Below, piece by piece: positions 12,131 to 62,890 of a stretch of 64,000 bases of DNA (its first letter is position 1; each line of letters begins with the position of its first letter). This DNA is from an uncultured Erysipelotrichaceae bacterium (GTDB lineage: Bacteria > Bacillota_I > Bacilli_A > RFN20 > CAG-826), in contig CACWSI010000001.1 in assembly GCA_902763555.1 (NCBI GenBank), forward strand, positions 7,215 to 71,214. The letters run 5' to 3'. A program made the position numbers and the translations under genes. The notes beneath the pieces were generated by a model. The model saw only the letters and a program-made list of their open reading frames with translations, made no database searches and had not been told where the DNA came from.

Positions 12131-12991
12131 TTATTTAATGTGGTATTTCCAATAATCTGGAAGTTCAATTTCAGGTCTTTCATAAGTTAAAGACAAGGAT
12201 TCATACTTCGCGGCTTGTGAATTTGAAAGTGCTTGATATTCATAGCCCACTAAGAAGTTTCCAAAGAACTCCATTTTATATTTGATTTCACTCACAGCGA
12301 TATTGTTCATATTGATTGGGCTTTTCGCAACTGAAGTTGTTTCTAAGATTAAACTTCCTTTTCCTCTTGAAGCATATTTCACAGTGTGGTTGAAATTATC
12401 ATCTTCGATAAATTCAAAGAATTTATTGTAATCAGAGAAGCGATTATAATAATTGCCCATCGCTACTTCAATATAGCGCTTAAAGGATACTGACATACTA
12501 CCAGCGCTAAATGCTGTTTCTTTTTCCGTATATGCAATAGTGTAAAGTGCATCTAAATCTATATCATTCTTTGAGATAAATAAAACATTACCATAGTCAT
12601 TTGTTTGCTTATGTATTAAAAGGGTATCAAGTCTCGCTCCAATATTATTGTCACGTTCAGTAAAATAACGCTCAATATCATCAATGTTTTTATACTCGAT
12701 ATCATATGTGTCTACAGTGGTTCTTTTCTCTTTTTGATCATAAAAGTATTCTTTTGTTTGACCACGGAAAACAAAATCGCCTCTCTTCAAACATTTCTTA
12801 CTATCCCAACGATCATACTCAACGATTAAACCATCTGTTAAAGAACGAGCGGTTTCTTTATCGATATCATGAGCTTCTGGTATTTCAACAGGCACAAACG
12901 GTTTGATTGTTTGAAGAGCGTACTTAACTTTGTTAGAGCCACAAGACACTAATAGAAGAGAAGAAGCAAGCAATAACATTATTTTTTTCAT
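12131..12991 (-). CDS. hypothetical lipoprotein
   Basis: MKKIMLLLASSLLLVSCGS signal plus lipobox, with GAGGTG SD upstream. Confidence 0.75.
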   Translation of the reverse strand: MKKIMLLLASSLLLVSCGSNKVKYALQTIKPFVPVEIPEAHDIDKETARSLTDGLIVEYDRWDSKKCLKRGDFVFRGQTKEYFYDQKEKRTTVDTYDIEYKNIDDIERYFTERDNNIGARLDTLLIHKQTNDYGNVLFISKNDIDLDALYTIAYTEKETAFSAGSMSVSFKRYIEVAMGNYYNRFSDYNKFFEFIEDDNFNHTVKYASRGKGSLILETTSVAKSPINMNNIAVSEIKYKMEFFGNFLVGYEYQALSNSQAAKYESLSLTYERPEIELPDYWKYHIK

Positions 12992-35728: not shown

Positions 35729-36934
35729 ATGAAAAACATGGTTTACATCCAATCCGGTGGACCAACCTCAGTCATTAACACATCATTATATGGTGCGATT
35801 AAAGAAGCAAAAAAACATCCAGATCTTATCGGTCACATCTATGGCTCTCAACACGGTGTTGAAGGCTTAATCGATGATGACTTAATCGATTTAGGTTTAG
35901 AAGACGATGAACAAATCGAACTTCTTCTTCAAACTCCAGGTAGTATCTTAGGTACCACAAGAAGAAAACTTCCAAAGGACATCCATACTCCTGAATACGC
36001 CGCGATTATTGAAAACATCAAAAAGCACAACATTGGTTATGTTTTCATCAATGGTGGTAACGACTCCATGGATACCTGCAATAAACTTGCTAAATTAGTC
36101 AAAGAATTAGGTATCGAAGATGTCAAAGTTATCGGTGTGCCAAAAACAATTGATAACGACTTAGCCTGCACAGACCACTCTTTAGGTTTCCCAAGTGCCG
36201 CTAAATTCGTTATAAACTCCGTTAACGCTTTCGCTATGGACGCTAACTGCTTCAAGAAAGGTAAAGTCCATATCGTCGAAATCATGGGTCGTGATGCCGG
36301 TTGGTTAACAGCTTCTGTTGACTTATTACCAGAACAAACAAGACCACACCTCATTTACTTACCAGAAATGAAGTTCGACTTAGAACAATTCTTAGTCGAT
36401 GTCCAAAGAGTTTATAAAGAAAAAGGCTTTGCCTTAGTCGCTATCTCTGAAGGTTTACAATTCGAAAGAGATATGACCAATGTCCGTGTTGACGGTTTCG
36501 GTCACGCTCAATTAGGTGGCGCTGCTGCGGAACTCTGCAGAATCGTTGAAAATAGATTAGACATCGGTACAAGAGCGGTGGAATTCTCCATCATCCAAAG
36601 AGCCTTCCCACAATATGTCTCTTTAGTCGACCGTAAAGAAGCTATTAAGACTGGTGAAAAAGCTGTTCAAGCCGCTTTAAAAGGTAAAACAGGCAAAATG
36701 ATCATCTTCGAAAGAGTTAGCCAAAACCCATACAAGATCAAATATAAACTCGCTCCATTAAGCAAAGTCGCTAATGCTGTCAGTCACGTCAAACCAGAAA
36801 TGATTGTTGACGCTACACGTATGAGCGATAGCTTCAGAGATTATTTACGTCCATTAGTCCAAGGCGAAGTTAAACTCGTTTATAAAGATGGCATCGCCCC
36901 AGTGAGTAACTTCAAACGTATCAAAGTTAAATAA
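35729..36934 (+). CDS. pfp: 6-phosphofructokinase, PPi-dependent type
   Basis: GGPTSVIN, GGNDSMDT (Asp where ATP-PFKs have Gly), PKTIDNDL (Lys where ATP-PFKs have Gly) and MGRDAGW. Confidence 0.85.
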   Translation: MKNMVYIQSGGPTSVINTSLYGAIKEAKKHPDLIGHIYGSQHGVEGLIDDDLIDLGLEDDEQIELLLQTPGSILGTTRRKLPKDIHTPEYAAIIENIKKHNIGYVFINGGNDSMDTCNKLAKLVKELGIEDVKVIGVPKTIDNDLACTDHSLGFPSAAKFVINSVNAFAMDANCFKKGKVHIVEIMGRDAGWLTASVDLLPEQTRPHLIYLPEMKFDLEQFLVDVQRVYKEKGFALVAISEGLQFERDMTNVRVDGFGHAQLGGAAAELCRIVENRLDIGTRAVEFSIIQRAFPQYVSLVDRKEAIKTGEKAVQAALKGKTGKMIIFERVSQNPYKIKYKLAPLSKVANAVSHVKPEMIVDATRMSDSFRDYLRPLVQGEVKLVYKDGIAPVSNFKRIKVK

Positions 36935-37320
36935 TGAAAAAATTCTTTAGCCAAACAATAGAAATAAAAGCCCTTATTATTTCAATAATCGCAACAGTCT
37001 TAGGCTTTCTAGGAACAATATTTCTATTTTGGCAACAAAGAGGAGATATCCCCTTCGGTGTATTAACTGGAGGGGGTATCATCATCCTTGGATGGTTAAT
37101 ACTTTACTTAAGTAAGAAACATGGCAAAGAGACCGCTAAACTCGATGTCTTTGTGATATTCCTTAGATTAACTCTATTGGTGATAAGCGCGGCGACATTC
37201 GCCATTTTGCGTTTACAGCTCAACTTATATATTATTTCGCCAATATCCTTAATTATCACTTACTTAGTAGTCTCGTTATTAACCCTTATCGCGCACATAG
37301 GAAAGGATAAAAATGCCTGA
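36934..37320 (+). CDS. atpI: AtpI-like small membrane protein
   Basis: Four TM helices, positioned immediately upstream of atpB. Confidence 0.5.
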   Translation: MKKFFSQTIEIKALIISIIATVLGFLGTIFLFWQQRGDIPFGVLTGGGIIILGWLILYLSKKHGKETAKLDVFVIFLRLTLLVISAATFAILRLQLNLYIISPISLIITYLVVSLLTLIAHIGKDKNA

Positions 37321-38074
37321 GGAAAATAACAACATTTTCAGTAATTTCTTCAAGATTAATATCGCTGGAGAACTAGTGTCTTCACTAATAGTCATTCTCA
37401 TTATAGTGATACTTTCTTTAATCGTGGGCATTTTAGCCGCTAGACAAAATCCACTTAAAAAGCCAAAAGGTCTTTTATTAATCGCTGAGATAGGTGTCAA
37501 TTTCTTTGATAACTTCGCTCGTGATTTAGTGGGTACAGCCTTACCTAACTTTGGTGGTTTTATCATGGGTGTAGCGATGTATTTATTCATCTCATTTATT
37601 TTTGGATTAACGGGTCTTCCTTCTCCAGTGACCTATATGGCGGTGCCATTATCTCTTGGTTTAGTGACTTTCTTATTAATCCATTACACATCCGCGAGAT
37701 ATACGAAGTGGCGTTATTTTAAACGCTACATCGATCCAATCCCAATCTTTTTACCAATTAACTTAATCTCGATGTGGGCGCCTTTACTCTCACTCACTTT
37801 ACGTTTATTTGGTAACGCTATCGCGGGTTGGGCATTATTATCCATCGTGGAGTATTCTTTAAGAGATTTATCAAGCACACTTTTCTCCTTCATTCAAAGC
37901 GAATGGAATCAAGTGCTCTTAGCCCCTCTTCCACTCGCGATACTTCACGCTTATTTTGATGTCTTTTCTGGTTTAATCCAGACATTCGTCTTCATTCTTT
38001 TGACTTCAATATTCATTGGTCAAGAGATCCCAGAAGATATAACTTTAAACACTATGGAAAGGAGGAAGAATTAA
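37313..38074 (+). CDS. atpB: F0F1 ATP synthase subunit a
   Basis: LTLRLFGNAIAG motif with the essential Arg; polytopic. Confidence 0.93.
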   Translation: MPEENNNIFSNFFKINIAGELVSSLIVILIIVILSLIVGILAARQNPLKKPKGLLLIAEIGVNFFDNFARDLVGTALPNFGGFIMGVAMYLFISFIFGLTGLPSPVTYMAVPLSLGLVTFLLIHYTSARYTKWRYFKRYIDPIPIFLPINLISMWAPLLSLTLRLFGNAIAGWALLSIVEYSLRDLSSTLFSFIQSEWNQVLLAPLPLAILHAYFDVFSGLIQTFVFILLTSIFIGQEIPEDITLNTMERRKN

Positions 38075-38298
38075 TGACCGGTTCATTAAACGTTTTAGCC
38101 GCTGCTATTGCCATCTTAGGTGTTATGCCTAGTGCTCTTGGTGAAGGTATGGTCTGTGCGCATGCATTAGACGGTATGTCACGTAACCCTGAAATGTACG
38201 GGAAACTCAGAACATCAATGATTCTCGCTTGTGCCCTTGTTGAAACCACAGCGATTTACTCATTGCTCATCAGCATTTTGATTTTATTTACAAAGTAA
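38074..38298 (+). CDS. atpE: F0F1 ATP synthase subunit c
   Basis: 74-aa hairpin with an RNPE loop and the carboxylate in ALVETTAIY. Confidence 0.93.
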   Translation: MTGSLNVLAAAIAILGVMPSALGEGMVCAHALDGMSRNPEMYGKLRTSMILACALVETTAIYSLLISILILFTK

Positions 38299-38314
38299 AA
38301 GGAGGTAAAAGAAT

Positions 38315-38857
38315 ATGTCATTGCCAGTATTTAACGCCATTGACGATATTATTGAACAGATGCAAACGATTCCTGGTAAATTAGTGCCAGATTGGTTTTC
38401 TCTTGTCATTCAATTATCTTCTTTTATCATCCTTTTACTTGTTGTATTCTTCGTGGCCTATAAGCCAGTGAAAAAGATGCTCCAAAAAAGAGCAGACTTT
38501 ATCCAAGAAGAAATCCAACAAGCACAAAAGAGTCACGCTGAAGCCGTGGAACAAACTAAAGAAGCCAAGAAAATTCTTAGCGATTCCAAAGCGGAAGCAA
38601 GCTTAATCATTGCTAACGCCACTAAAAAAGGTGAAGAAAAATATGAAGCAATGGTTTTAGAAGCTAAAGAAGAAGTTAAAGAGATGAAACTCGCCGCTCA
38701 AGATGATATTGAGCAAGCCCGAGTGGACGCTCTTAACGACATTAGAAATGAGATGGTTAACGTTGCGTTAAGCGCCTCAAAAGAAATCTTAAAACGCGAA
38801 GTTGATAACGAAGATAACGCTCGCCTCGCGGAAGATTTTATCAATCGTTTAAATTAA
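38315..38857 (+). CDS. atpF: F0F1 ATP synthase subunit b
   Basis: Single N-terminal TM helix plus a long charged coiled coil, in operon position. Confidence 0.88.
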   Translation: MSLPVFNAIDDIIEQMQTIPGKLVPDWFSLVIQLSSFIILLLVVFFVAYKPVKKMLQKRADFIQEEIQQAQKSHAEAVEQTKEAKKILSDSKAEASLIIANATKKGEEKYEAMVLEAKEEVKEMKLAAQDDIEQARVDALNDIRNEMVNVALSASKEILKREVDNEDNARLAEDFINRLN

Positions 38858-38865
38858 TTTAATCT

Positions 38866-39402
38866 ATGAATCAAATAGCCCAAACATACGCTGAAGCATT
38901 ATTCTCTTTAGGCTTAGAAGAAAAGAAACTCACTAAGCTACAAGGTGAAGGAAAAGCATTATCAGAAATCATTCATGATAATGAAGACTTTTTATTGCTT
39001 ATAGATTCACGCTTTATGAGTCGTGAAGAAAGACAAGATATTGCTTCTAAAATCTTGAAAGATTTTGATGAAGATATAGTTAACTTTGTGAAGGTATTAA
39101 TCGCTAATAACCGCACTAACTATATTAAAGATGTCTTAGAAGCGTTTAATTCCTTATGTAATGAATATAAGGGAGTGAAAGAAGGGCTTATCTATTCAGC
39201 GTTTCCTCTTAATAAAGAAACTATTAACAAAATCAAAAACAAAATCAGTCAAATCGAAGGAATGGATGTTGAACTTATCTCCCGTATTGATCCAAGTTTA
39301 ATTGGTGGGGTGAAAGTCGTCATCAATTCTCATGTCTATGATGGCTCAATTAAAAACCAACTTGAAAAAATGCAAATTGACCTTCTAGGAAAGGAGCTTT
39401 AA
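38866..39402 (+). CDS. atpH: F0F1 ATP synthase subunit delta
   Basis: OSCP-like YAEALFSL start and IGGVKV near the C-terminus, in operon position. Confidence 0.88.
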   Translation: MNQIAQTYAEALFSLGLEEKKLTKLQGEGKALSEIIHDNEDFLLLIDSRFMSREERQDIASKILKDFDEDIVNFVKVLIANNRTNYIKDVLEAFNSLCNEYKGVKEGLIYSAFPLNKETINKIKNKISQIEGMDVELISRIDPSLIGGVKVVINSHVYDGSIKNQLEKMQIDLLGKEL

Positions 39403-40911
<1,509 letters not shown>

Positions 40912-40917
40912 TAGTGT

Positions 40918-43563
<2,646 letters not shown>

Positions 43564-43574
43564 GAGGAACTATT

Positions 43575-44138
43575 ATGCATTCATGGCATGATGTAAAAAT
43601 CTCTAGAGTAACCCCAAGTGACTTTTTAGCGGTCATTGAAATATCTAAAGGTAGTAAAAATAAATATGAACTTGATAAAGAAACAGGTCATCTAATTTTA
43701 GACCGTGTTCTTTTCACCAGCACTCACTACCCACAAAATTATGGTTTTATTCCACGTACTTTCGCGGATGACTATGACCCACTTGATGTCTTAGTCCTTT
43801 GTAGTGAACCAATTATTCCAATGTCACTCGTAGAGTGCACACCAATTGGTGTTCTTATCATGACGGATAATGGTTTAAACGACGAAAAGATTATCGCTGT
43901 TGCTAAAAACGATCCATTCTATAACGGCTATAACGATATTAGTGAAATCCCTTCTCACATCATGGATGAAATCAAACACTTCTTTATGGTCTATAAATCC
44001 TTAGAAGGTAAAGATACTTCAGTAGAAGTATTTAAAGATAGAAAAGCCGCGGAAGAAATTATCCAACGTAGCTTAGATAAATATCATCACGATATCGAAC
44101 CACGTATTACCGCGGAAAGAAAAGCCAGAGGCTATTAA
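43575..44138 (+). CDS. ppa: inorganic pyrophosphatase, family I
   Basis: EISKGSKNKYELDK, YPQNYGFIP and DPLDVLVL motifs. Confidence 0.93.
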   Translation: MHSWHDVKISRVTPSDFLAVIEISKGSKNKYELDKETGHLILDRVLFTSTHYPQNYGFIPRTFADDYDPLDVLVLCSEPIIPMSLVECTPIGVLIMTDNGLNDEKIIAVAKNDPFYNGYNDISEIPSHIMDEIKHFFMVYKSLEGKDTSVEVFKDRKAAEEIIQRSLDKYHHDIEPRITAERKARGY

Positions 44139-44650
44139 TGCTTCATATCGTCTTATATCGTCCAGAAAAGCCGCAGAATACTGGTAACATTATGCGTACA
44201 TGTGTCGCTATTCACGCCACATTACACATCATTGGGCCAATTACTTTTTCTATTGACTCTAAAGACCTCAAAAGAGTGGGCATGGATTATATTGATGATT
44301 TAAAAATGCACTTTTATAAAGACTATGAAACTTTTGTAAAAGAAAATCCTAACGCTGATACATATTATGTGACTAGATACGCAAAAACTGTTTATTCAAC
44401 ATATGATTTATCTAATCCTTCCAGAAATATCTATTTAATGTTTGGAAGAGAATCAACTGGCATACCTCATGATATCTTAAAAATGCATGAAGATAGATTA
44501 ATGCGTATACCAATGGTCCCTGAAGCAAGAAGCCTAAATCTATCTAACTGTGTTGCTTTAGTGGCCTATGAAGTTCTTAGACAACAAAAATTCCCTGACT
44601 TAGCGACAGAGGAAGCGATTAAAGGACCAGATTTCTTATTTAAGGATTAA
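44138..44650 (+). CDS. trmL: tRNA (cytidine/uridine-34 2'-O)-methyltransferase TrmL (SpoU family)
   Basis: Near-colinear with E. coli TrmL: IVLYRPEKPQNTGNIMRTC ... MFGRESTGIP ... RIPMVPEARSLNLSNCVALVAYE. Confidence 0.9.
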   Translation: MLHIVLYRPEKPQNTGNIMRTCVAIHATLHIIGPITFSIDSKDLKRVGMDYIDDLKMHFYKDYETFVKENPNADTYYVTRYAKTVYSTYDLSNPSRNIYLMFGRESTGIPHDILKMHEDRLMRIPMVPEARSLNLSNCVALVAYEVLRQQKFPDLATEEAIKGPDFLFKD

Positions 44651-46020
44651 TAGTCTTGTTTATTAGAAAGTAATGCGATTGTTTCTTCTCTTACTTTATT
44701 CAAAGTAATCGTGGAATAGTTAAGTAAATTAGCCTCGCCTAAAGCGTGGCCTTTTTTAACATTCTTCATGTTGGTGATCATAATATCGCCCGCTGTTTTG
44801 TTAGAGAGGATTAAACAGAGTTCCGCGGCCACTAATTTAACTGCGTTACTTGGATTAGGATTATGAATAATAACATGAGCGCCATGATAATCCTTGATAT
44901 GTAAATACCAGTCCTCTTTATTAGCGATTTTAAAAGTTAATTCGTTATTGCTAGAAGCATTCTTACCAAAAGAAATCTTCACATTATCATAAATGATATA
45001 TGAGCATCTAATTGGTAATAATTTTTTCTTTAAATGCTGTTTAGGAAGTAGTTCTTGGCTTAAAGAGAATAATTCTTCATCATCCATATATTGAGAGCTC
45101 ACTAATAAGTAGGAAAGATATTCTTCCTCTTCTTTAGCTTTATTAATTTCTAATTCCGCCATCTCAATCGTGCGTTTGCTCTTTTTGTATTTCTTAAACA
45201 TCGCATTCGCGTTTTCAACGATGCTCTTAGATTCATCTAGTTTAATATTGTTATCTTTAAGATATTCATCTAATAATTCTTTATCAGATTGGAACGCTAA
45301 TAAGTAGTTACCATGATCAGCATCGTTTAGATGTTCTTTCGCGGATTCTATTTCACCTCTTAAAACAACGCTCTTTTTATCAAGTGATTTAATACGACTT
45401 TTAATATAACGATATAGTGGTGTGAACTTTTCTTTCTTATGCACTTGTAAGGCATTTTCATAATAATTCACAGCTTGTTTTTTAATATCTTGCAAAGAAG
45501 GAACTTCATTTTCTTCTTTTAATACACCTTTATTAGGATATTCATAACTTAAACCATTTAATATCGGTCTAGCGCTTGTCACACTTGCGTAATGTAAAGC
45601 ATGGATAATCTTGTCTTCTTCATTTACAAATAAGAGATTAGCTCTTTGAGGAATACATTCTAAATATAAATGAGTAACGACTTTCTCATAGTAGTCATTA
45701 GCCTTTTGAATAACGAATTCCACAATACGGTCATCATTATTCAAATTAACATCTACGATATAGGCATCCTTTAAGAATTTTCTTAAAGACTCATTTAAAT
45801 TACCCATAATCGTGGGTTCTACTTTTTTAACATTAATTAAGGCTAAAAATGGATGTTGATGATTAAGAGAAATAAGTAACTTTTCATCTTTAATCATTGA
45901 TAGTGTGCATAAGAAATCATGAGAGTTAATCACTGTAATGTTATTGATTCTACAACCAATGATTTTCCTTCTTAATTCATCAATGACTTTCTTAAATGCA
46001 GTGTAAGAATAGTAGTTCAT
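44647..46020 (-). CDS. rqcH: NFACT-family protein (FbpA/RqcH-like ribosome quality-control factor), short form
   Basis: N-terminal NFACT-N-like region, central coiled coil, and C-terminal NFACT-R/DUF814 motif WYLHIKDYHGAHVII. Confidence 0.7.
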   Translation of the reverse strand: MNYYSYTAFKKVIDELRRKIIGCRINNITVINSHDFLCTLSMIKDEKLLISLNHQHPFLALINVKKVEPTIMGNLNESLRKFLKDAYIVDVNLNNDDRIVEFVIQKANDYYEKVVTHLYLECIPQRANLLFVNEEDKIIHALHYASVTSARPILNGLSYEYPNKGVLKEENEVPSLQDIKKQAVNYYENALQVHKKEKFTPLYRYIKSRIKSLDKKSVVLRGEIESAKEHLNDADHGNYLLAFQSDKELLDEYLKDNNIKLDESKSIVENANAMFKKYKKSKRTIEMAELEINKAKEEEEYLSYLLVSSQYMDDEELFSLSQELLPKQHLKKKLLPIRCSYIIYDNVKISFGKNASSNNELTFKIANKEDWYLHIKDYHGAHVIIHNPNPSNAVKLVAAELCLILSNKTAGDIMITNMKNVKKGHALGEANLLNYSTITLNKVREETIALLSNKQDY

Positions 46021-46124
46021 ACCTACAGTTAGTTTAACAAATTAATTGACATTAAACATCGTCTTTTTATTTCTCCTTCAAAATAATATAAAGATGATAT
46101 ATCTTATTTATAAGGAGACCTAAT

Positions 46125-49100
46125 ATGTCATTTAGCTTTGCGAGCTATTGTTTTGACAAATACAAAAAGTTTTTGACTCATAATTACAAAGACTACTCCT
46201 TTAATATCGATTTAAAATTTGGAAAATTATATCTAACTAGAAAGCTATTTGCTCTTCCTGGCAAGTATCTTCCAATTGATTTATCTTTTAAATATATTGA
46301 AGCGCATACTACTTCTACACAGACTCTTCATCAAAAGACAGGGCTACCAATAGGTGTTAAAACCAATTATCATCTTTTCTTGGAATATAACACCACGTAC
46401 GGACAATATTGGTTAGAAGATGCTGACGGCTTTTTACATGTCTTCAAATTAGCGGATAACTCGACTACTCTTTATTTTGATAAAAAAGGCTCTGGCCTCA
46501 TGATGGAAATCTTGACCGGTGGTGGTTATAAAGTCTTTGATGATTATAAAAACTATCAAATATTTGATTCTAATGGCCGTTTAATTCTTATTCATCAGCA
46601 TATAGCGAATGACCATTATGCGGAATTAACCATTTCTTATATGGCTAACTATCCAGCGGACTCTCTTCGTATCTATTCAATTACTGATAACTACAACAAT
46701 ATAGTTTATTTTTCATATACCGCTAGTGGTGTACAAATCTCCTATAACAATAATGTTGTTGCCACTATATCTTATGATAACGATATGTATTTAACTGAAG
46801 TAACCAAGAATATTGGTGATAATCATATCATTACTGAGACTTTTGACTGCGACCCTTTGCTCCACACAATAACACTAGATGATGGTGAGACTTTTTCTTT
46901 AAATTACTATGATGATAAAGTTTCCTATCTTATCTCTTCGATTAATCATTGCCGTTATGCGTTTGATTATTCCCTTGGAGAGAACAAGGTAAGAGTTAAC
47001 GATTCAGGCGGCGTTAACACTTTTTATGACTTAAACCAAGAACAATCATATAATCGATTTTCATATGGTAATACAAACCTTAGCTATCAAACGCTTAGTT
47101 CAGAACATTTATCTTGTTTAGTTAAAGAAGCAAACGATGATGAAGTATTAGAGTTTGTTTTAGATAATAGTGGACAAACCCCGTCTTACATTTATGACAT
47201 GGCTTATTACGAAAACTATTATCAAACCCCGTCTAGTTCAAATGCTAACTTAGAATCAAAGAAAGCTTATTTGTTCTGTGCTAAGATAAGTGGCACAATG
47301 GCGGTGGATGATACTTTCACCATTGAGCTAAAAGATGATGATGGTAATTTATTGTCCCGTCTTATCTATGAAAGAGGAACCACCTTTTTAGCGGCCCCAA
47401 TTGGCATTAAAGAATCAACACAGCGAAGCTTTTACCTAAACTTTTTAAAACCATTTTCTAATTCCATGACTGTTTTTGAGGCTAAAATAGTCCCGCTTAT
47501 TGGTAGTTTTGAAATGTTTTGTTCAAATATCTCCACAGATGAACCAATTTTCTTCTATGGTGATACTCCATATTACCTATTAACTAGTGGAAAAGGTGTC
47601 TATTTAAATAACGGCAATACACTTTATGATTATCGTTTATCTATGAATGATTATCTTATTAATGAAAGATTACTCTATATCAGTGATACTTCCACCCATT
47701 ATTGGTTTAATGATCAAAAAGGACTCGCGGATAATATTTCATCTTTAAGCATCAAAGAAACACAATATATGAATATGCTTTTTTCTTCTAATCCAAAGTC
47801 TATTAAGCACAGCTATATGTATCCTGCTCCTGATGCATTGTTCTATAGAATTAGCGGTAAAGATGATTGCTCATTAAAAATCACTAAAATCTCCCATAAT
47901 AGTGCTTCTTTTCCAACTGGACACACAAATTACCACTATGAAGAAGAAACGACTGAATACTTAGCAACTACTTCTGGTCATGCCTCTATATATGATTATG
48001 ATGATAACTACCTACTTCAAAAAGTGACTAGTGACGATACAAACGAAAACTATTCTTATGATTCAAATGGCAATCTTATCGAAACTGAAACTAGCAATAA
48101 CTTAAATAACGACACAATTAGTGAGCAGTTTACCTACGATACAAAAGATAATGTCATTAGTGAATCAAAACTAGTGGGAGACACTGTTTTCACTTCAACA
48201 TATTCTTATGATTCAACCAATAAACATAGTGAGACAAATTATCCAAATTTATTAACTGAAACTCATTTCTTTGACTCTATAACAAAAGAAAGAGAAACAG
48301 GCATTAGATTTAGTAGTAGTGACTCCCTTTATATCGAACAAAATAATAATTACATCGCTGAAGACACTTATTCTTTATCAACTGATGGGAATACTCATCT
48401 TATTGGTTCATATCATGGTGAAGTCTGCGCAATAGAATATAACAATAACCAAACATTAGAAATTGAATATGTACCAAACATCCATCAAGACATCGTCATG
48501 AATTATAGTTATTGTTATCGCTTTGCTAATGGATATGAATATTATGATGAATACGATAATTTTAGAAGAATCATCTCTAGTGATGGTGTTACCTACGATT
48601 ACGATGATTATAATAATGTCACATCAATAACTGACCCATTCGTGCAAGAAATTGATCCAAATAACGATCCAGACATAACTTATGAATATGATTACTATGA
48701 CCAATTAGTGGCAACCTCTATTGCGTATAATAACTTATCAATGACCTATCAATACGATAAATATCATCGTTTAATAAGTACTTCTTCGTTGTACGATACT
48801 TCTTTTGAATACCATGATACCGAAGACATGGAAAAAGTTATCAAAAAGACTTTGATAGAAGATGGTTCAGAATCTTTAGTTATTGAAGATGAAGTCGATG
48901 CTTTTAAGCGCCTAACAAAAAGGTCTATTGGTATCAATAATAAATATTCCTATGTTCAATATGAGTATTATCATGGTGATTTAGATAATAGTAGAACTAA
49001 TAAACTCATTAAAAAAGCTTCCTACTATAATATCATCAATCATCTGCCTTTCTTGGAACGAATTGATGAATATGAATACGATAGTGTTGGTAACATTAAT

Positions 49101-50468
49101 AAAATCACAACGACTGTTGGTCAAACCACCCATACTATTAATTATTATTACGATAAATATTCAAGACTTATCAAAGAAGAAAACGAATGGTTCAATAAAG
49201 CTTATCAATATAGTTATGATGATAAAGGAAATATTATTAAGATTAGTAGTTCAGACTATCCTCAAACTGGTCCTATCTTTCCATTTAACCCATTTGTCAT
49301 TAATACGCATTTTTACGACAGCACCTATCCTGATAGATTAATTAGATTCGTGCTTGATAGTTTAGCATATGATAATTATGGTAACCCAATTACTTATGGT
49401 GATAAGACTTTAACTTGGACCAGAGGAACTTTGCTCTCGTCTATTACTGAAGGTAACAATACTATTTCCTTTAATTATGATGGCTTTAAAGAAAGAATAA
49501 GGAAAACCGTCAACAACACCGTTACTACCTATAAATACATTGATAATCGCTTATTAGTGGAAAATCGTAATGGATATGCAATCAGATACTACTATTCACA
49601 TGCTGGTGTCATTGGCTTTGAATATGACGATGATATCTATATTTATGAAAAGAATATCCAACAAGATGTTATAGCAATCAGAAACTCAAGCAATCAAATC
49701 GTTGCTAGATACATCTATGATGCATGGGGCAATCACAAAGTATTGAATCCTAATAATACTCAAAATACTAGTAGTAGTTTTATTGGTAACATCAATCCAA
49801 TTAGATATCGTTCCTATTATTATGATGCTGATTTAAAGATGTATTGGCTTACTTCTAGATACTATGATCCAAGAATTGCCAGATTCATTTCTCCTGATTC
49901 TTGGGAATATCTAAATTACAAAAAACTTCACAGCCTTAATCTTTATGCTTATAGCAAAAATAATCCAGTGATGTATTATGATCCGAGCGGGCATAGCATA
50001 ATAGCTTTATTTTTAGGCATAGTAGCCGTTTTATCAGCGGTTGCGCTTGCTATTGGAGTGTCGAATTATGGAAAGATACTATACGAAAAATCTCAATCAA
50101 ACTCAGATAGCGCCGACAAAAATCCGATATTGGATGCGTCTGATTCTAATAATTATCCGCAAACAAAGCAATTTGACAATAGATTCACGGTTCATTATTT
50201 GATAACTGCCGGTTCGGATAATGCCCATTACTCATTAAAAGTGTATGACTCTTGGCGGTACTCAAAAGAAGAGATTATTGAATTTTTAACTTATCTAGCT
50301 GATTTGTACCCATCGATAAACATTGACAGAATGATGAATGAATGGATCTGGCACAATATTGCGTATACTGAGGGAATTGGTATCTCATCCTCAAAGGACG
50401 TGGATGTTTATTTCAACGCCCCTGACAAATACTATTGGTTTATATTTGATTTTTTGAGGTTTTGGTGA
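46125..50468 (+). CDS. Rhs/YD-repeat polymorphic toxin with unrecognised 157-aa C-terminal tip
   Basis: Many YD repeats (YSYDSNGNLIE, FTYDTKDNVI, YEYDSVGNINKI, YSYDDKGNIIKI, AYDNYGNPITY). Canonical Rhs core end RYYDPRIARFISPDS...LYAYSKNNPVMYYDPSGH, with DPSGH at 49980-49994. AAGGAGA SD upstream. Confidence 0.92.
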   Translation: MSFSFASYCFDKYKKFLTHNYKDYSFNIDLKFGKLYLTRKLFALPGKYLPIDLSFKYIEAHTTSTQTLHQKTGLPIGVKTNYHLFLEYNTTYGQYWLEDADGFLHVFKLADNSTTLYFDKKGSGLMMEILTGGGYKVFDDYKNYQIFDSNGRLILIHQHIANDHYAELTISYMANYPADSLRIYSITDNYNNIVYFSYTASGVQISYNNNVVATISYDNDMYLTEVTKNIGDNHIITETFDCDPLLHTITLDDGETFSLNYYDDKVSYLISSINHCRYAFDYSLGENKVRVNDSGGVNTFYDLNQEQSYNRFSYGNTNLSYQTLSSEHLSCLVKEANDDEVLEFVLDNSGQTPSYIYDMAYYENYYQTPSSSNANLESKKAYLFCAKISGTMAVDDTFTIELKDDDGNLLSRLIYERGTTFLAAPIGIKESTQRSFYLNFLKPFSNSMTVFEAKIVPLIGSFEMFCSNISTDEPIFFYGDTPYYLLTSGKGVYLNNGNTLYDYRLSMNDYLINERLLYISDTSTHYWFNDQKGLADNISSLSIKETQYMNMLFSSNPKSIKHSYMYPAPDALFYRISGKDDCSLKITKISHNSASFPTGHTNYHYEEETTEYLATTSGHASIYDYDDNYLLQKVTSDDTNENYSYDSNGNLIETETSNNLNNDTISEQFTYDTKDNVISESKLVGDTVFTSTYSYDSTNKHSETNYPNLLTETHFFDSITKERETGIRFSSSDSLYIEQNNNYIAEDTYSLSTDGNTHLIGSYHGEVCAIEYNNNQTLEIEYVPNIHQDIVMNYSYCYRFANGYEYYDEYDNFRRIISSDGVTYDYDDYNNVTSITDPFVQEIDPNNDPDITYEYDYYDQLVATSIAYNNLSMTYQYDKYHRLISTSSLYDTSFEYHDTEDMEKVIKKTLIEDGSESLVIEDEVDAFKRLTKRSIGINNKYSYVQYEYYHGDLDNSRTNKLIKKASYYNIINHLPFLERIDEYEYDSVGNINKITTTVGQTTHTINYYYDKYSRLIKEENEWFNKAYQYSYDDKGNIIKISSSDYPQTGPIFPFNPFVINTHFYDSTYPDRLIRFVLDSLAYDNYGNPITYGDKTLTWTRGTLLSSITEGNNTISFNYDGFKERIRKTVNNTVTTYKYIDNRLLVENRNGYAIRYYYSHAGVIGFEYDDDIYIYEKNIQQDVIAIRNSSNQIVARYIYDAWGNHKVLNPNNTQNTSSSFIGNINPIRYRSYYYDADLKMYWLTSRYYDPRIARFISPDSWEYLNYKKLHSLNLYAYSKNNPVMYYDPSGHSIIALFLGIVAVLSAVALAIGVSNYGKILYEKSQSNSDSADKNPILDASDSNNYPQTKQFDNRFTVHYLITAGSDNAHYSLKVYDSWRYSKEEIIEFLTYLADLYPSINIDRMMNEWIWHNIAYTEGIGISSSKDVDVYFNAPDKYYWFIFDFLRFW

Positions 50469-51610
50469 TGAATACAAGGTTTAAAAGAGTGTTAACGATA
50501 TCAATTGTCTTATCGATAGTTTCGCTTTTTGTTTTTGTGTGCTGCTTCTATTTGATACCTACAAAGTATCACAAGGCATTTTTACTGAAACAAACTGACG
50601 TTGTTTTTCAAGCTGAAAACGGCAGCACTGTTTTTTCACTTAGAGGATCGGAATATCCCAGAAGTTATAATTTTGAAAAGAAAAATCATTTCGAGATGGT
50701 TTTGTTCGAAGTTGATGGCAATCGCATGAATTGTAATCAAATTACAAGCAACGAAGATTATATTTTTGCGGCACTTGAAAACGGCAAGGCTTATAATCCT
50801 ACGGGATATATAAATGTATATGATGTGGATTTAAATTTAATAAAAACAATAAACTTTGGTGAATATAATGAGGTTGCTGGGCTAGTTTCTAATGGTAATT
50901 GTTTGTATTATATCATTCGTAATTGGAAGAGTTCCAACTCTAGTCTTTACAAGTACTATATTGAAAGCGATAAGCATATTTTGCTAAAAGACGACTTAAA
51001 CGGAGCGAACTATTATAATGATGAAGACAGACATTTATTTTTTGACAGTTTAGGAAAATTACATATCTCGAGAGAAAAAACACAACTGATGTTGGCGCAT
51101 GATTCAGATGGCTATTATTGCATGACAGATGGCATTGTTTCAATAAAGCTGAAAAACAAAAAACTGACCATTTTTGATGGAACTGCCAAAAAAGTATTTG
51201 ATGCTAAATCTTGCGATTTACTTTATGATAAAGCCTATATCATTGGAGATAATCTTATTTTTGCAGCCTACCGCAATGTAAAAAAACAAAATTGTGCAAC
51301 ATTGCAAAATGAAAAAGGTTTTTGCTTATGCGGAATGAAGGAATCGTACTTATATTGCTATGATATGAAAAATATGCAATTGAACGTCAAACAAACCTTT
51401 AGAACAGGGACTTATTTAATTGATTATGATTTGAACAATGTAGAGTATTATTATGATGGCACCCTTTACATTAATGATACTTTGGTAAGGAAATGTGAAA
51501 CTATTGAAGCTAAAGAATATGTGCTTAAGCCACGTTTGAGCTTAGCAGATACTATTCCTTCGATTATTTATTACTTAAGTTTTTATAATGGTGCTATTTA
51601 TGGCATTTGA
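50468..51610 (+). CDS. membrane-anchored repeat (beta-propeller-like) protein; candidate cognate immunity protein
   Basis: ATG 50468 overlaps the Rhs stop (TGATG), with GAGG 8-9 nt upstream. N-terminal signal-anchor VLTISIVLSIVSLFVFVCCFYLI. Recurrent LYY/IFAA strand-like motifs. Confidence 0.6.
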   Translation: MNTRFKRVLTISIVLSIVSLFVFVCCFYLIPTKYHKAFLLKQTDVVFQAENGSTVFSLRGSEYPRSYNFEKKNHFEMVLFEVDGNRMNCNQITSNEDYIFAALENGKAYNPTGYINVYDVDLNLIKTINFGEYNEVAGLVSNGNCLYYIIRNWKSSNSSLYKYYIESDKHILLKDDLNGANYYNDEDRHLFFDSLGKLHISREKTQLMLAHDSDGYYCMTDGIVSIKLKNKKLTIFDGTAKKVFDAKSCDLLYDKAYIIGDNLIFAAYRNVKKQNCATLQNEKGFCLCGMKESYLYCYDMKNMQLNVKQTFRTGTYLIDYDLNNVEYYYDGTLYINDTLVRKCETIEAKEYVLKPRLSLADTIPSIIYYLSFYNGAIYGI

Positions 51611-51794
51611 TTTGTTGCGATAGCATTACACTGAGCCCATTTGCGAACAAATGTCTTAGATAAGCAGTGAAAACCGGCATACACTTAATATCATTGATTT
51701 AAGTTGTTAAATTATATAAGCGTGAGATTATTATGCTCCATCCTTTTTATATATACTTTTGACGCAAAGATGCATAGCGTAAGACAAAGAAATG

Positions 51795-51823
51795 TTGAAT
51801 ATCTTATTAATAACCATTAAAAT
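51795..51823 (+). promoter_or_regulatory. putative gmk operon promoter (near-leaderless)
   Basis: TTGAAT, 17 nt, TAAAAT. The hexamer ends 10 nt before the A of ATG 51833, with no SD. Confidence 0.5.
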
Positions 51824-51832
51824 GGTAAGCAC

Positions 51833-52405
51833 ATGAAAAAAGGGTTATTAATTATTCTTAGTGGTCCATCAGGTGTCGGAAAAGGCACTGTCAGAAAATA
51901 CATTATGAATCGTGAGTTATTCCCGATGGTATTTTCCGTGTCAATGACCACCAGAGAACCAAGGGCCACAGAGACCAATGGTGTGGAATATTACTTTGTT
52001 AGTAAAGAAGAATTCCAAAGAAATATTGATAACGATAATTTCCTTGAATGGGCGGAGTTCGTTGGTAACCGTTATGGCACTCCAAAAAGCATTGTTGAAG
52101 ATCTCCGTAATCAAGGTAAAAACGTCCTTCTTGAGATTGAAATCAATGGTGCGGAGCAAGTGCTTTCGAAGGTTAAAGATGATAGAGTCGTTTCCTTCTA
52201 TTTGAAACCGCCATCAATGAAACAACTTGAAGCACGTATTAGAAAGAGAAAATCTGAGACTGAAGAAGTCATCCAAAAGCGCCTTGCTAAAGCGGAAGCG
52301 GAAATGGCAAAAGCTAAGAATTATGATTTCGTTGTGATGAACGATCGTATTAATCGCGCTGGTGATGAAATCATAAAAATCCTTAAGGAATTTGATAAAG
52401 ATTGA
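51833..52405 (+). CDS. gmk: guanylate kinase
   Basis: P-loop GPSGVGKGT, TTREPR..E.NGVEYYFV. Confidence 0.95.
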   Translation: MKKGLLIILSGPSGVGKGTVRKYIMNRELFPMVFSVSMTTREPRATETNGVEYYFVSKEEFQRNIDNDNFLEWAEFVGNRYGTPKSIVEDLRNQGKNVLLEIEINGAEQVLSKVKDDRVVSFYLKPPSMKQLEARIRKRKSETEEVIQKRLAKAEAEMAKAKNYDFVVMNDRINRAGDEIIKILKEFDKD

Positions 52406-52419
52406 AGAGACGGTAGAAC

Positions 52420-54615
52420 ATGCAAATAGTGGAAGTTCTTATTGAATATGCCAAGAGTTCGTTAAACCGTCCTTTTTCTTACTGCTATAAAGGCAACAAA
52501 AAACTAGTTAAAGGTATTAGAGTTCTATTAGAATTCAATCACCGTGATTTAATTGGTTATGTAATAAACGTCACTGAAACTAATCTATCTTTAGAACAAT
52601 ATGAAGAAGAAAAAGGCTTCTCCATAAGTGAGATTAAAGATGTCATTGATGATGTCCCATTACTCAATGAAGAATTACTCTCTTTATTAGATGAAGTATC
52701 TTCTTATTATCTAGTCCCTAAAATCAGTGTTCTTCAATCGATGTTGCCTCCTTCTTTATCTCCAAGGAAGTCATCTTTAAAAGCCCCTAAGATTGCTTAT
52801 GACCAATATTTAGAAGTCATTGATGAAAGTGAAATAGACCTAACAAATAAACAAATTGAACTATTAAGGTTTATCAAACTTGAAGGCCGTGTTTTAAAGC
52901 GTGATATTAAGCAGGTTAGTATCATTGATAAGCTTTTAGAAAAGAATAGAATTCAAATCGTAAAAGAAGAAAAACGCAGGTTAAAAGTTCCTGACTATCA
53001 ATATCAAACTCCTCCTAAGCTCAGTGAAGACCAAAATAAAGTCATTGATGAGTTCAATAATTCAAACGATAGTGTCTATCTCTTAGAGGGTGTGACTGGT
53101 TCTGGTAAAACTGAAGTATATCTCAATCTATCTGAACAAGTTCTTAAAGAGGGTAAGTCTGTTTTAATGCTTGTTCCTGAAATATCTTTAACCCCAATGA
53201 TGGTGGAATATTTCCTTCATAGATTTTCTAATAACGTCGCAATTCTACATAGTGAACTTACCCCAGCGGAAAAATATGATGAATATCGCAAGATCGCTAA
53301 AGGGGACTGTAAGATTGTTGTGGGTGTTAGAAGTGCGATATTCGCTCCTTTAAAAAACATTGGTCTAATTATATTAGATGAGGAACATACTGAATCATAT
53401 AAACAAGATAATTTACCTTTCTATCACGCTAGAGAGGTGGCTATTATGCGTGGGAAATATAACCACGCTAAAGTACTCCTTGCTAGTGCTACTCCATCCT
53501 TAGAAAGTAGAGCAAGAGGACAAAAAGGTGTTTATCATATGCTTTATTTAACAAAGCGTATTAATAATCAAAAACTACCAACCACTAAAATAGTTAATAT
53601 GCTCGATTATCATAATATTGATCGAGATTCCTATATCTTCTCTCATGCCTTAAGAGATGAACTCCATAAGACCCTAGCGAAGTCTGAACAAGCTATCTTA
53701 CTTATCAATAGAAGAGGTTTTTCCACACATGTTACTTGCCGTAACTGTGGGCACGTCTTTAAGTGTCCAACATGTGGAATAGCACTAACCTACCATAAGA
53801 AAGATAATATGCTTAAATGTCATCACTGTGACTATGTTGAACCATTACCTGAAACATGTCCAGAATGTGGCTCTAAATATCTAATGAAAACAGGCTTTGG
53901 TACCGAAAAGATCCAAGAAGAAGTGGAACGTCTTTTCCCAAGCGCTAGAACATTAAGATTAGATAGTGATTCCGCAAAGAATAAGAGCAAAATCCCAGAA
54001 GTAATAGAGGCATTTAGAAAGAAAGAAGCTGATGTCTTAATCGGCACACAAATGATTGCTAAAGGCCATGATTTCCCAGATGTAACCTTAGTTGGTATCG
54101 TTTTAGCGGATATTGGTTTATCTATGCCTTCTTACCGTAGTAATGAAAGAGCCTTCCAACTTATTACGCAAGCAATAGGGCGTTCAGGAAGAAAAGAAAA
54201 GCCAGGTATGGCGATCATTCAAACATATTTACCAAGCCATTACGCAATTACATTCGCGGCGAGACAAGACTATGAACTTTTCTATCGTAAAGAGATGGAA
54301 ATGCGTAAACTACAATTTTATCCTCCATATGCTTATCTTGCGAGTGTCACAATACGTGGTAAAAACGAAGAAACAGTTATCGAAAATACGATTAGAATTG
54401 TTGATTTCTTAAACGATGAATTTTTAGATGATGGACAAATCTTAGGACCATCCACTCCATATATTCCATTTGATATGGGTCTACATGTTAGAGCTATTTT
54501 AATCAAATTTAAAAACCCTCAAAAAGCTCACGATATCCTTGTTAAAATGCAGGAATTATTTGCCTATAACAGTGCCTACGAATTATTGATTAATATCGAT
54601 CCTTACAATTTTTAA
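52420..54615 (+). CDS. priA: primosomal replication-restart helicase PriA
   Basis: Walker A GVTGSGKTEVY, DEEH box, and a Cys-rich insertion CRNCGHVFKCPTCGIALTYH...CHHCDY...CPECGS. Confidence 0.95.
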   Translation: MQIVEVLIEYAKSSLNRPFSYCYKGNKKLVKGIRVLLEFNHRDLIGYVINVTETNLSLEQYEEEKGFSISEIKDVIDDVPLLNEELLSLLDEVSSYYLVPKISVLQSMLPPSLSPRKSSLKAPKIAYDQYLEVIDESEIDLTNKQIELLRFIKLEGRVLKRDIKQVSIIDKLLEKNRIQIVKEEKRRLKVPDYQYQTPPKLSEDQNKVIDEFNNSNDSVYLLEGVTGSGKTEVYLNLSEQVLKEGKSVLMLVPEISLTPMMVEYFLHRFSNNVAILHSELTPAEKYDEYRKIAKGDCKIVVGVRSAIFAPLKNIGLIILDEEHTESYKQDNLPFYHAREVAIMRGKYNHAKVLLASATPSLESRARGQKGVYHMLYLTKRINNQKLPTTKIVNMLDYHNIDRDSYIFSHALRDELHKTLAKSEQAILLINRRGFSTHVTCRNCGHVFKCPTCGIALTYHKKDNMLKCHHCDYVEPLPETCPECGSKYLMKTGFGTEKIQEEVERLFPSARTLRLDSDSAKNKSKIPEVIEAFRKKEADVLIGTQMIAKGHDFPDVTLVGIVLADIGLSMPSYRSNERAFQLITQAIGRSGRKEKPGMAIIQTYLPSHYAITFAARQDYELFYRKEMEMRKLQFYPPYAYLASVTIRGKNEETVIENTIRIVDFLNDEFLDDGQILGPSTPYIPFDMGLHVRAILIKFKNPQKAHDILVKMQELFAYNSAYELLINIDPYNF

Positions 54616-57445: not shown

Positions 57446-58193
57446 TCGTTATCTATCTGGTCGCTTCTCATATAAAACTGACATTGGAAGAATCCGCTTA
57501 AGTAATGAGGATCAAGCCGCTGCTATGATCAATGCTTCGGGTAATGTTTTACTCGTTGTTTGTGATGGTATGGGTGGTCAAAATAAAGGTGACCTTGCCT
57601 CTTCTTTAGCGATTAATACAATTACGACATCATTTAAAAGCCGTAAAGGCTTCCTAAACCGTTACTTTGCAAAACTCTGGGTTGGTCAAGTTATCCGTGA
57701 GGCTAATAAATCCATCTATGAACAATCACAAAGTAACAAGTCTTATCATGGTATGGGTACCACAATTACCTTATTGCTCATCATCAAAGATACTGCTATC
57801 TTAGGCCATGTTGGTGATTCTCGCTGTTACTTCTTAAGAAACAGACGTGAATTCACCCAAATGTCGGAAGACCAAACATATGTTGGCTACTTATTGAGAA
57901 CCGGACAAATCAATCAAGAAGAAGCTTTAACCCATCCAAAAAGGCACGTACTCATGAACGCTCTTGGCGTCTATCCAAGCGCAAGTGTGGATGTAAAAAG
58001 TTTCCCATACATGGGTGAAACAGTGCTTTTATGTAGTGATGGTTTATATAACAATGTGCCTACTAATGACATCGCCTCAGTTTTAAAAGGCGAAGACACA
58101 GTCGAACAGAAAGTCGACGAACTTATTGCCATTGGCAATAAAAATGGTGGTAGCGACAATATCGCCGTTGTCATTTGGGAGGCGCAAGAATAA
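57438..58193 (+). CDS. prpC: PP2C-family Ser/Thr phosphatase
   Basis: NEDQ, CDGMGG, GTT, DGL and GGSDNI motifs, positioned upstream of prkC. Confidence 0.92.
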   Translation: MNSRYLSGRFSYKTDIGRIRLSNEDQAAAMINASGNVLLVVCDGMGGQNKGDLASSLAINTITTSFKSRKGFLNRYFAKLWVGQVIREANKSIYEQSQSNKSYHGMGTTITLLLIIKDTAILGHVGDSRCYFLRNRREFTQMSEDQTYVGYLLRTGQINQEEALTHPKRHVLMNALGVYPSASVDVKSFPYMGETVLLCSDGLYNNVPTNDIASVLKGEDTVEQKVDELIAIGNKNGGSDNIAVVIWEAQE

Positions 58194-59080
58194 TGAGTAC
58201 AATAAAAATTGGCGCCCTCGTTGACGGGCGCTATCGTATCGAAGCACGAATTGGTCATGGTGGTATGGCGGAAGTCTATGAAGCCACAGACATTATTAAT
58301 AAACGTAAAGTTGCCATTAAGATGATTAGGGAAGACGTGATGAAGAATCCTATTAATCTTCGTCGTTTTCAAAATGAGGCCACAATTGCCTCCAGTTTAA
58401 ATCACCCTAATATCGTGAAGGTTTTTAACCATGGCACAATTGAAGGTCGTCCATATATCGCTAACGAGTATGTGCGCGGTCAAAGCATGAAAGATATGCT
58501 CGATTTTAGAACATCTATTCCAATCGCTGAAGCGGTTAGTTATATGCTACAACTAACATCTGCTCTTTTTTATGCCCATCAACATAACATCATTCACCGT
58601 GATATCAAACCACAAAACATCTATGTTATGCCTGATGGCACGATTAAATTAGGTGACTTTGGTATTGCTCAAGCGGGTGGCGTGGATGATAGTTTTACAA
58701 AAACTAGTGAAATCGTGGGCTCTGTCCATTACTTAGCCCCTGAAATATCTCAAGGTAAACCAGCCTCTATTCAATCAGATATCTATGCCGCTGGTGTCAC
58801 CTTCTATGAATTATTAACTGGTCATGTTCCATTTGATAAAGATACCCCAGTTAATGTCGCAGTCGCACATGTTAAGGAGAAATTCCCTCCTGTGAAAAAA
58901 TATGTACCAAACTGCCCTAAAGAAATTGAAAAGATTATCGCTAATGCGACAAAAAAACGCTTAGGCGACCGTTATAAAGGAGCGGATGAATTCTATGATG
59001 ACTTATTAGAAATAAGTAAACATCCAGAACTCTTAAAAGAAAAGAAACCGCTCATCTCGAGGATTTTTGGGTTTAAATAA
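58193..59080 (+). CDS. prkC: Hanks-type Ser/Thr protein kinase, catalytic domain only (no TM helix, no PASTA)
   Basis: GHGGMAEVY...VAIK, HRDIKPQN, DFG and APE motifs. ATG 58193 overlaps the prpC stop (TAATG) and follows GGGAGG. The protein ends about 25 aa after the kinase core. Confidence 0.9.
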   Translation: MSTIKIGALVDGRYRIEARIGHGGMAEVYEATDIINKRKVAIKMIREDVMKNPINLRRFQNEATIASSLNHPNIVKVFNHGTIEGRPYIANEYVRGQSMKDMLDFRTSIPIAEAVSYMLQLTSALFYAHQHNIIHRDIKPQNIYVMPDGTIKLGDFGIAQAGGVDDSFTKTSEIVGSVHYLAPEISQGKPASIQSDIYAAGVTFYELLTGHVPFDKDTPVNVAVAHVKEKFPPVKKYVPNCPKEIEKIIANATKKRLGDRYKGADEFYDDLLEISKHPELLKEKKPLISRIFGFK

Positions 59081-62654: not shown

Positions 62655-62890
62655 ACTTATCCTTTCGAAATATAAGAAAAGGGAAATAAATGCTAAATGC
62701 ATCCATCTTCCCCTTATCCATATTTCCTACTATTATTATATCAACTTGTTGATATAACTACAATACTTTATTCACTATTAATAAAAAATTATACCTAATA
62801 GATTAACGAGATGGGACCGCTATGTATTATTAATTCACTCAAATTCATCCTCCACTTGCAGAAGATGGGGGTCTTCTTCGAGAATTCAAT

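Follow-up and report, generated by a model that had tools for sequence, protein, structure and literature searches.

In Listeria, the immunity gene lrhI lies directly downstream of lrhA, which encodes an Rhs toxin that is itself known by prediction only, and LrhI combines an N-terminal membrane anchor with an extracellular globular part, an outward-facing arrangement that led the authors to propose an envelope target; orphan immunity copies occur in other strains, and truncated LrhA variants without any targeting domain have an unknown mode of export (PMC10327511). Here we describe a cassette that consists of an Rhs/YD-repeat protein gene and a downstream partner gene in a 64-kb stretch of DNA from an uncultured Erysipelotrichaceae bacterium (contig CACWSI010000001.1, positions 7,215 to 71,214; hereafter, the window, meaning the whole stretch analyzed, to which all coordinates refer). 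The cassette is probably a two-gene polymorphic toxin/immunity module for competition between closely related strains. Set side by side by description, it resembles LrhA/LrhI in its adjacent downstream immunity-type gene with an outward anchor, its orphan copies, and its signal-less variants. In contrast to the window protein, full-length LrhA has a helical N-terminal targeting region and a DUF6531 domain and is accompanied by three small partner genes of the Lxp/WXG100 kind and by an essC8 gene next to it; neither DUF6531 nor a helical domain was found in the window protein, and no WXG100, Lxp, or essC gene was present among the called neighbors at loci with gene tables.

Other described systems share parts of this organization. 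WapA/WapI of Bacillus subtilis and WapA of Streptococcus suis, which mediate contact-dependent competition between strains, are likewise Gram-positive Rhs/YD proteins with a polymorphic C-terminal toxin and a cognate downstream immunity gene. WapA is equipped with a Sec signal peptide and with repeats that bind the wall, and the toxins known from it are tRNases of the cytoplasmic type. In contrast, the Kyte-Doolittle maximum of the N-terminal 19-mers of the window protein was 0.52, and neither a Sec signal peptide nor wall-binding repeats were found there. A closed YD shell and a C-terminal aspartyl autoprotease are shared with type VI secretion system (T6SS) Rhs effectors, and those from Vibrio (8h8b), Photorhabdus (Rhs1, 7q97), Salmonella bongori (8qja), and Pseudomonas aeruginosa (Tse5, 8cp6) were the best sequence matches among solved structures. 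Tse5 also has a hydrophobic, membrane-inserting tip. Unlike these effectors, the window protein has no PAAR or prePAAR domain and no VgrG or Eag partner, no N-terminal autocleavage region was identified in it, and its host is a Firmicute-type member of the Bacilli; residues 1 to 625 gave no above-threshold Pfam match, the shell begins at about residue 25, and no vgrG, eag, or other T6SS gene was found in the 64 kb. The BC cocoon of Tc toxins (TcdB2-TccC3 and YenB-YenC2) is also signal-less, releases an encapsulated tip by autoproteolysis, and has an extra beta domain in its shell, and its components matched the Rhs core with E values of 9.5e-7 to 1e-2. However, the window protein is without a TcA translocator and without SpvB and TcdB mid domains (SpvB and TcdB_toxin_mid gave no Pfam match), its insert is a jelly-roll rather than the TcB beta-propeller gate, and it has an immunity-type partner, which insecticidal Tc toxins do not have. 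Finally, similarity of the YD shell to bacterial teneurin-like proteins (TLPs; 9pt5 and 9ifo, E 2e-14) was limited to positions 978 to 1140 of the family profile, and those proteins are longer, at ~2100 to 2240 amino acids (aa); the section headings of a report on them refer to toxic C-terminal functions of diverse kinds and to immunity proteins associated with TLPs (PMC13018210).

The site that holds the cassette, between rqcH and gmk, differs from strain to strain. In blastn comparisons, two conspecific contigs (L002 and L008) were 94.5 to 96.9% identical to the window over positions 36122 to 49994 and again from 51833 on, and positions 49995 to 51832 had no match in either. The similarity breaks at the codon for H1290 (1290/1291) and at the gmk ATG, and the exchangeable module between these breaks (49995 to 51832, forward strand) comprises the tip and the partner gene together with the spacer that separates the latter from the start codon of gmk. 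Further site states were collected from contigs encoding an identical Gmk. A second version of the class B cassette (classes are described below), with a 312-aa partner, occupied the site in L093 and L098, and an empty site with a 93-bp spacer was found in L095, L097, L099, and L101. The Rhs gene was deleted in L100 and L102, in which a 292-aa class B partner (97% identical) was kept behind a scar made of an ATG and the last ~17 tip codons. It was also deleted in L094 and L096, in which ~27 N-terminal Rhs codons were left and a 165-aa nonmembrane open reading frame (ORF) was kept; this ORF shares 96% identity with the gene that follows a class D Rhs gene at the same site (L103). The Rhs leader, with the ATG or the first codons, persists as a scar in the Rhs-deleted contigs L094 and L100.

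Within one rumen species, this one site was thereby seen with a class A cassette, a class B cassette, the second class B version, and a class D cassette, as well as empty and partner-only. It is a clean natural case of Rhs cassette turnover, with four cassette versions drawn from three tip classes and with empty sites and immunity-only scars at the same position. Judged from their gene content, the partner-only sites are the putative orphan-immunity state. Swapping, loss, and immunity-only remnants together are the signature of an antagonistic toxin/immunity system. A survey of the rqcH-gmk locus for presence/absence and tip swapping had been suggested in an earlier note on this DNA, which proposed a polymorphic role; the locus proved to be polymorphic, neither universal nor endowed with an invariant C terminus.

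The Rhs gene (46125 to 50468, forward strand) encodes a 1,447-aa protein without a signal peptide. A strong Shine-Dalgarno sequence, AAGGAG, lies at 46112 to 46117, within the divergent rqcH-Rhs intergenic region (46021 to 46124) and 7 nucleotides from the ATG, and reading of the sequence found no in-frame start upstream of the ATG at 46125. Because no earlier start exists in frame, the signal-less N terminus is genuine, and a signal peptide hidden behind an upstream start was ruled out. Read-through of the TGA codon under genetic code 4 was also ruled out, as TGA ends 7 of the 54 genes of the window and homologues stop at the same residue; with a coding density of 94% under table 11, the Rhs stop is genuine and code 4 is not in use in this host. 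The Rhs-associated core (49716 to 49994, forward strand; aa 1198 to 1290) ends in DPSGH and holds the presumed aspartyl autoprotease and cleavage site. It matched all of TIGR03696 (Rhs_assc_core; E 8.9e-17, 61.4 bits against a cutoff of 32.5, model positions 1 to 76 of 76). YD repeats were recognized by TIGR01643 (YD_repeat_2x; 28.1 bits, cutoff 15.8) and by Pfam RHS_repeat (PF05593; 24 bits, cutoff 22). Within the core, RYYDPRIARFISPDS occupies aa 1245 to 1259 and NPVMYYDPSGH aa 1280 to 1290, after which a 157-aa tail follows. The paired motifs YYDP (1246 to 1249) and YYDPSGH (1284 to 1290) were invariant in 32 relatives, and the invariant core residues include D1248, R1253, D1258, D1286, G1289, and H1290. 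The family profile matched solved Rhs shells over positions ~600 to 1370, best with 8h8b (E 1.3e-29) and also with 7q97 (E 6.6e-18), 8qja (E 7.4e-13), and Tse5 8cp6 (E 1.3e-7), as well as with YenC2, TccC3, and bacterial teneurin-like proteins.

The partner gene (50468 to 51610, forward strand) encodes a presumed immunity protein of 380 aa. The TGA of the Rhs gene (50466 to 50468) and the ATG of the partner (50468 to 50470) have one A in common (TGATG), and GAGG stands upstream of the partner ATG at 50456 to 50459. The hydropathy of the partner was 2.81 at the N terminus and at most 0.92 in the remainder; since this single predicted anchor (aa ~8 to 30) is accompanied by a positively charged N terminus, the bulk of the protein, a beta-rich domain, should lie outside the membrane. 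Lipoboxes were present in two partner homologues (L006 and L089). Relatives of the partner were rare, only 3 among 5.8 billion proteins, and the partner covaried with the class A tip in four of four loci. The HMM matches above, all significant and above the family cutoffs, and the coordinates given here confirm the core of the earlier note, namely, a 1,447-aa YD-repeat ORF that ends in an Rhs core, followed by a non-Rhs 157-aa tip and by a gene whose ATG overlaps the Rhs stop. The toxin-and-downstream-immunity layout that it had recognized there is upheld by the joint change of tip and partner families and by the orphan partners of Rhs-deleted strains.

The Rhs family comprises ~36 proteins, mostly full length (1433 to 1490 aa), with identities from 92% down to 36%. 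Conservation was 0.5 to 0.9 along the shell and 0.17 to 0.37 past residue 1300, and at least four tip classes were carried on shells of 87 to 92% identity. Class A, to which the window belongs, has an NEWxWHN motif and an outward-anchored partner of 369 to 383 aa; class B has an FEWECHN motif and an outward-anchored partner of 292 to 328 aa; class C has an EEWEIHN motif and an anchored partner of 234 aa; and class D is basic (GGEKGDKRRFR), with a cytoplasmic partner of 165 or 182 aa that has no membrane anchor. At the loci examined, across genera, the pairing of tip class and partner class was without exception for the four classes. Relatives of the Rhs protein occur in records titled Mycoplasma sp. 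CAG:776, Acholeplasma sp. CAG:878, and "uncultured Tenericutes" and equally in records titled Christensenella, Acutalibacteraceae, and the cultured Pumilibacter muris, which we take to be walled Clostridia. A 44%-identical relative still resides between rqcH and gmk (L090), and other relatives sit elsewhere; because the flanks differ between genera, the two genes alone travel together. In the metagenome-assembled genome RUG12224 (L010, 10001 to 14861), a class D cassette lies in the same conserved neighborhood but has been inserted elsewhere in it, not before gmk but downstream of priA and of one more gene.

The tip is composed of a leading helix and a domain of ~130 aa. The helix, SIIALFLGIVAVLSAVALAIGVS (49995 to 50063, forward strand; aa 1291 to 1313), contains the sole hydrophobic segment of the Rhs protein (aa 1292 to 1310), which follows DPSGH directly and for which the 19-mer at aa 1292 scored 2.97 on the Kyte-Doolittle scale; in the structural model, tip residues 2 to 39 are predicted to form one long helix. 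A hydrophobic stretch heads the tip in all four classes of the family. The class A domain (50064 to 50465, forward strand; aa 1314 to 1447) was modeled as a small alpha/beta domain with an NEWIWHN motif and an aromatic C-terminal tail (YYWFIFDFLRFW), and its predicted local distance difference test score (pLDDT) was 85.4. Among 14 class A tips, L1391, E1406, H1410, and D1434 were invariant, and R1402, N1405, W1407, and W1409 were nearly so. A search of the tip profile against PDB sequences gave no match, and none of the tip and partner classes had a sequence match in PDB or a significant match in Pfam, NCBIfam, or PHROG. RNase T2 was rejected as an identity for the tip, its score of 17.3 bits being below the cutoff of 26; the CAS I-like His varies among class A tips, and there was no structural match in PDB. 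An LAS/M15 metallopeptidase, considered for the "EW.WH" motif, was dropped, as only one His is invariant.

An exhaustive hidden Markov model (HMM) search recovered 159 relatives of the class A domain; it was needed because a word-indexed search with the tip profile returned two fragments only. Some of these relatives ride on other Rhs proteins of 1600 to 1835 aa, and others are short proteins of 100 to 220 aa, some with an anchor or signal of their own. The stand-alone homologues (P0120, P0122, P0127, P0133, P0137, P0148, and L091 6001 to 6318) have the motifs SY[KR], EW..HN, and T[KR]DVD. In BFVD, the class A tip model matched one uncharacterized protein of 114 aa from a crAss-like virus contig (Foldseek E 7e-5). 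The cassette adds an unclassified toxin-domain superfamily with an EW..HN motif and several immunity families.

At the other end of the protein, most of the family keeps the N terminus MS(F/Y)xF.., which a few members precede with a short extension. A family-conserved stretch, FNIDLKFGKLYLTRKLFALPGKYLPIDLSFKY, starts at about residue 25, and we read it as the first strands of the shell; with the shell starting there, no room would be left for a trafficking domain. Within the shell, AlphaFold2 and Foldseek placed a jelly-roll beta-sandwich at aa ~341 to 471 (47145 to 47537, forward strand), followed by a second beta-rich subdomain that extends to aa ~620. The model (m81e49afc2062) had a mean pLDDT of 78.5 and values of >90 across the jelly-roll block. 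Foldseek matches of this block in PDB (E 5e-5 to 1e-3, probability ~1) included Eph receptor ligand-binding domains, the meprin MAM domain, the TNF-like lectins BC2L-C and PLTL, CBM4, and domain III of Cry toxins. We read the insert as a candidate target-binding module of a lectin- or CBM-like kind. The jelly-roll insert, the hydrophobic helix that heads the tip, and the outward-facing anchor of the partner had all been overlooked in the earlier note.

An Rhs/YD shell that begins near residue 1, an Rhs core at its end, the exchange of tip and partner as a unit, and presence/absence polymorphism are all directly observed. The logic of such a cassette is textbook and its kind is ordinary; the delivery route is the testable question. 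By analogy with the Rhs literature, the shell would enclose the C-terminal tip, and the aspartyl autoprotease of the core would cut after DPSGH (H1290), freeing the helix and the ~130-aa domain within the shell. The jelly-roll insert may then bind a surface ligand of the target cell, and the leading helix could serve as a built-in membrane-insertion or translocation element. The helix is probably a part of delivery and not of any one toxin, because it heads four tip classes that are unrelated to each other and one of which has a cytoplasmic partner, and because a helix directly after the core also heads the tips of 38 of 56 other Rhs proteins of gut Firmicutes. The class A domain would have its site of action on the outer face of the target's membrane or envelope, since its partner is predicted to be membrane anchored with its bulk outside (the same reasoning was applied to LrhA/LrhI). 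Conservation of E1406, H1410, and D1434 suggests a hydrolase, with membrane perturbation as the alternative.

Several observations weigh against a toxin/immunity module of this kind. No export route can be named for the signal-less Rhs protein, and the class A tip has no recognizable toxin fold, as a structural comparison of its model found no fold match in PDB (best E 2.1). The homology between class A and classes B and C is weak, as they have only an EW..HN...VD core in common (hhalign E 2.7e-4, probability 42%). The tip domain may be nontoxic alone, given the short stand-alone homologues, one of which (P0122, the one examined) has a neighbor unrelated to any partner family. Additionally, several members have Lys-rich flanks C-terminal to the helix that are not readily reconciled with an "N-in, domain-out" orientation.

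The question of export was considered against a set of 56 distinct other Rhs proteins from species of gut Clostridia and Bacilli (loci L013 to L086, GTDB species genomes). An N-terminal hydrophobic segment was missing in 50 of them and present in 6, and many of the genes downstream of these Rhs genes likewise begin with an anchor. A search of the window, in which all ORFs of at least 125 aa in positions 1 to 36000 were read and the remainder was covered by Pfam, found no T6SS, type VII secretion system (T7SS)/LXG/WXG100, TpsB, or phage-tail gene, ORFs of less than ~110 aa not having been scanned. The earlier note had reported the same absence of T6SS, T7SS/LXG, CdiB-type, and phage-tail genes, which holds for ORFs of at least ~110 aa, and it had presented export as a puzzle of a wall-less host. 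The puzzle itself stands, as the protein has no known Rhs trafficking domain and the window no secretion genes, but it is not special to wall-less hosts: with 50 of 56 proteins equally signal-less and 38 of 56 tips led by a helix, export is a general gap for such Gram-positive Rhs proteins and not a peculiarity of this host. A signal-less Rhs protein might leave the cell by lysis or vesicle release or through an exporter encoded elsewhere.

It is possible, though doubtful, that signal-less "minimal" Rhs cages, in which a hydrophobic helix comes right behind the autocleavage site, constitute a delivery class that has not been described before and is common across gut Firmicutes, Mollicutes-like lineages among them. 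Such a cage would need none of T6SS, T7SS, Sec, and TcA for its exit, which could, for instance, take place through lysis, in vesicles, or upon direct contact between membranes. It would dock by its lectin-like insert, and the helix would insert the tip into the target membrane or carry it across. The architecture itself, a helix-led tip on a protein that has no trafficking domain, often next to an anchored partner that faces outward, recurs in gut Firmicutes, and no export route has been described for it. A new route, if it is one, would add to the known means by which bacteria, perhaps wall-less ones too, attack their neighbors.

The same module could instead be a secreted Rhs effector of the ordinary sort that leaves the cell through a dedicated machine whose genes lie beyond the window, either a T7SSb or an unrecognized exporter that reads the conserved N-terminal ~25 residues. 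The 64 kb seen here may simply not include the secretion genes, the first 50 residues are among the best conserved of the family (0.73), and T7SSb-linked Rhs toxins exist in Listeria (PMC10327511). We nevertheless consider this unlikely, as the shell motif from about residue 25 leaves no space for a targeting domain of an LXG-like or helical type, DUF6531 was not found, no WXG100/Lxp-type gene is among the genes called around the cassette at loci with gene tables, and the flanks vary between genera while the two genes alone travel together.

Strict covariation of tip and partner, the predicted membrane anchoring of both class A proteins, and a tip without a recognizable toxin fold would also suit a polymorphic pair of membrane-anchored ligand and receptor that distinguishes self from nonself, like IdsD/IdsE of Proteus, and serves kin recognition or adhesion rather than killing. 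Rhs-deleted strains, however, retain the partner alone, as selection for protection predicts, whereas a lone receptor gains nothing; moreover, the class D partner is cytoplasmic, as with nuclease-type toxins, and E, H, and D are invariant in the tip. We therefore regard a recognition pair as very unlikely.

A module that is never exported, whether a toxin-antitoxin pair or a suicide device for phage defense in which the shell keeps a membrane-active tip harmless until triggered, is highly improbable. The absence of an export signal accords with it, a caged hydrophobic helix fits a membrane-collapsing abortive response, and Salmonella Rhs elements have been reported to act as type II toxin-antitoxin modules (PMC7043789). 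However, the partners of classes A, B, and C have their predicted bulk outside the membrane, the wrong side for neutralizing a toxin within the cell, the insert, being lectin-like, suggests that the ligand is external, and no defense genes lie alongside the cassette. We give scarcely any credence to a weapon against eukaryotes, whether rumen protozoa, fungi, or cells of the host, in the manner of the Tc-toxin BC cocoon, whose components are also signal-less and are released by lysis. Even though the jelly-roll bears a resemblance to lectins and to Cry domain III, neither a TcA-like translocator nor an SpvB or TcdB_mid domain was found, similarity to TccC3 and YenC2 in PDB does not reach beyond the core (profile positions 1243 to 1324), and the orphan partners in conspecifics indicate bacterium-against-bacterium pressure.

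The placement of the toxin/immunity cassette between a divergent rqcH and gmk-priA, as the earlier note had it, agrees with the gene coordinates. rqcH (44647 to 46020; NFACT_N, E 2e-35) is divergent from the Rhs gene, and gmk (51833 to 52405) follows the cassette, with priA (52420 to 54615) downstream of gmk. A gene for a PrkC-like Ser/Thr kinase of 301 aa (58175 to 59080, forward strand) lies next to a PP2C gene; an ORF of this length cannot accommodate PASTA repeats or a membrane segment, and the 295-aa counterpart carried by conspecific contigs matched kinase Pfam families only. Lipobox proteins without a Pfam family are encoded at 1019 to 3646 and 3648 to 4850 on the forward strand and at 12131 to 12991 on the reverse strand. 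The kinase-only PrkC and the lipoproteins may be compatible with a reduced or absent cell wall, as hints and not as proof. The orders RFN20, RF39, and ML615J-28 are predicted in one report to be a mix of walled and wall-less species (PMC10868615).

A few further genes of the window deserve mention. The two large adjacent lipobox proteins (1019 to 3646 and 3648 to 4850) have long Ser-rich linkers after the Cys. A TnpB-type gene (61353 to 62702, reverse strand; OrfB_IS605, Cas12f1-like TNB, and HTH_OrfB_IS605, E 2e-24) was the only mobile-element gene seen in the window. A 2,094-aa ORF (21956 to 28240, forward strand) with several N-terminal hydrophobic segments and no Pfam family is flanked by a CPBP protease/TraX pair and an Impact_N gene, and an identical protein was encoded on at least three other contigs. 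Between a glycerol kinase gene and a uridine-kinase-like gene lies a gene for a DUF5677 protein (32189 to 33322, forward strand; E 1.2e-9). Finally, a multipass membrane GGDEF-EAL protein for cyclic-di-GMP turnover (5002 to 7290, forward strand) was unexpected in a seemingly small, reduced genome.

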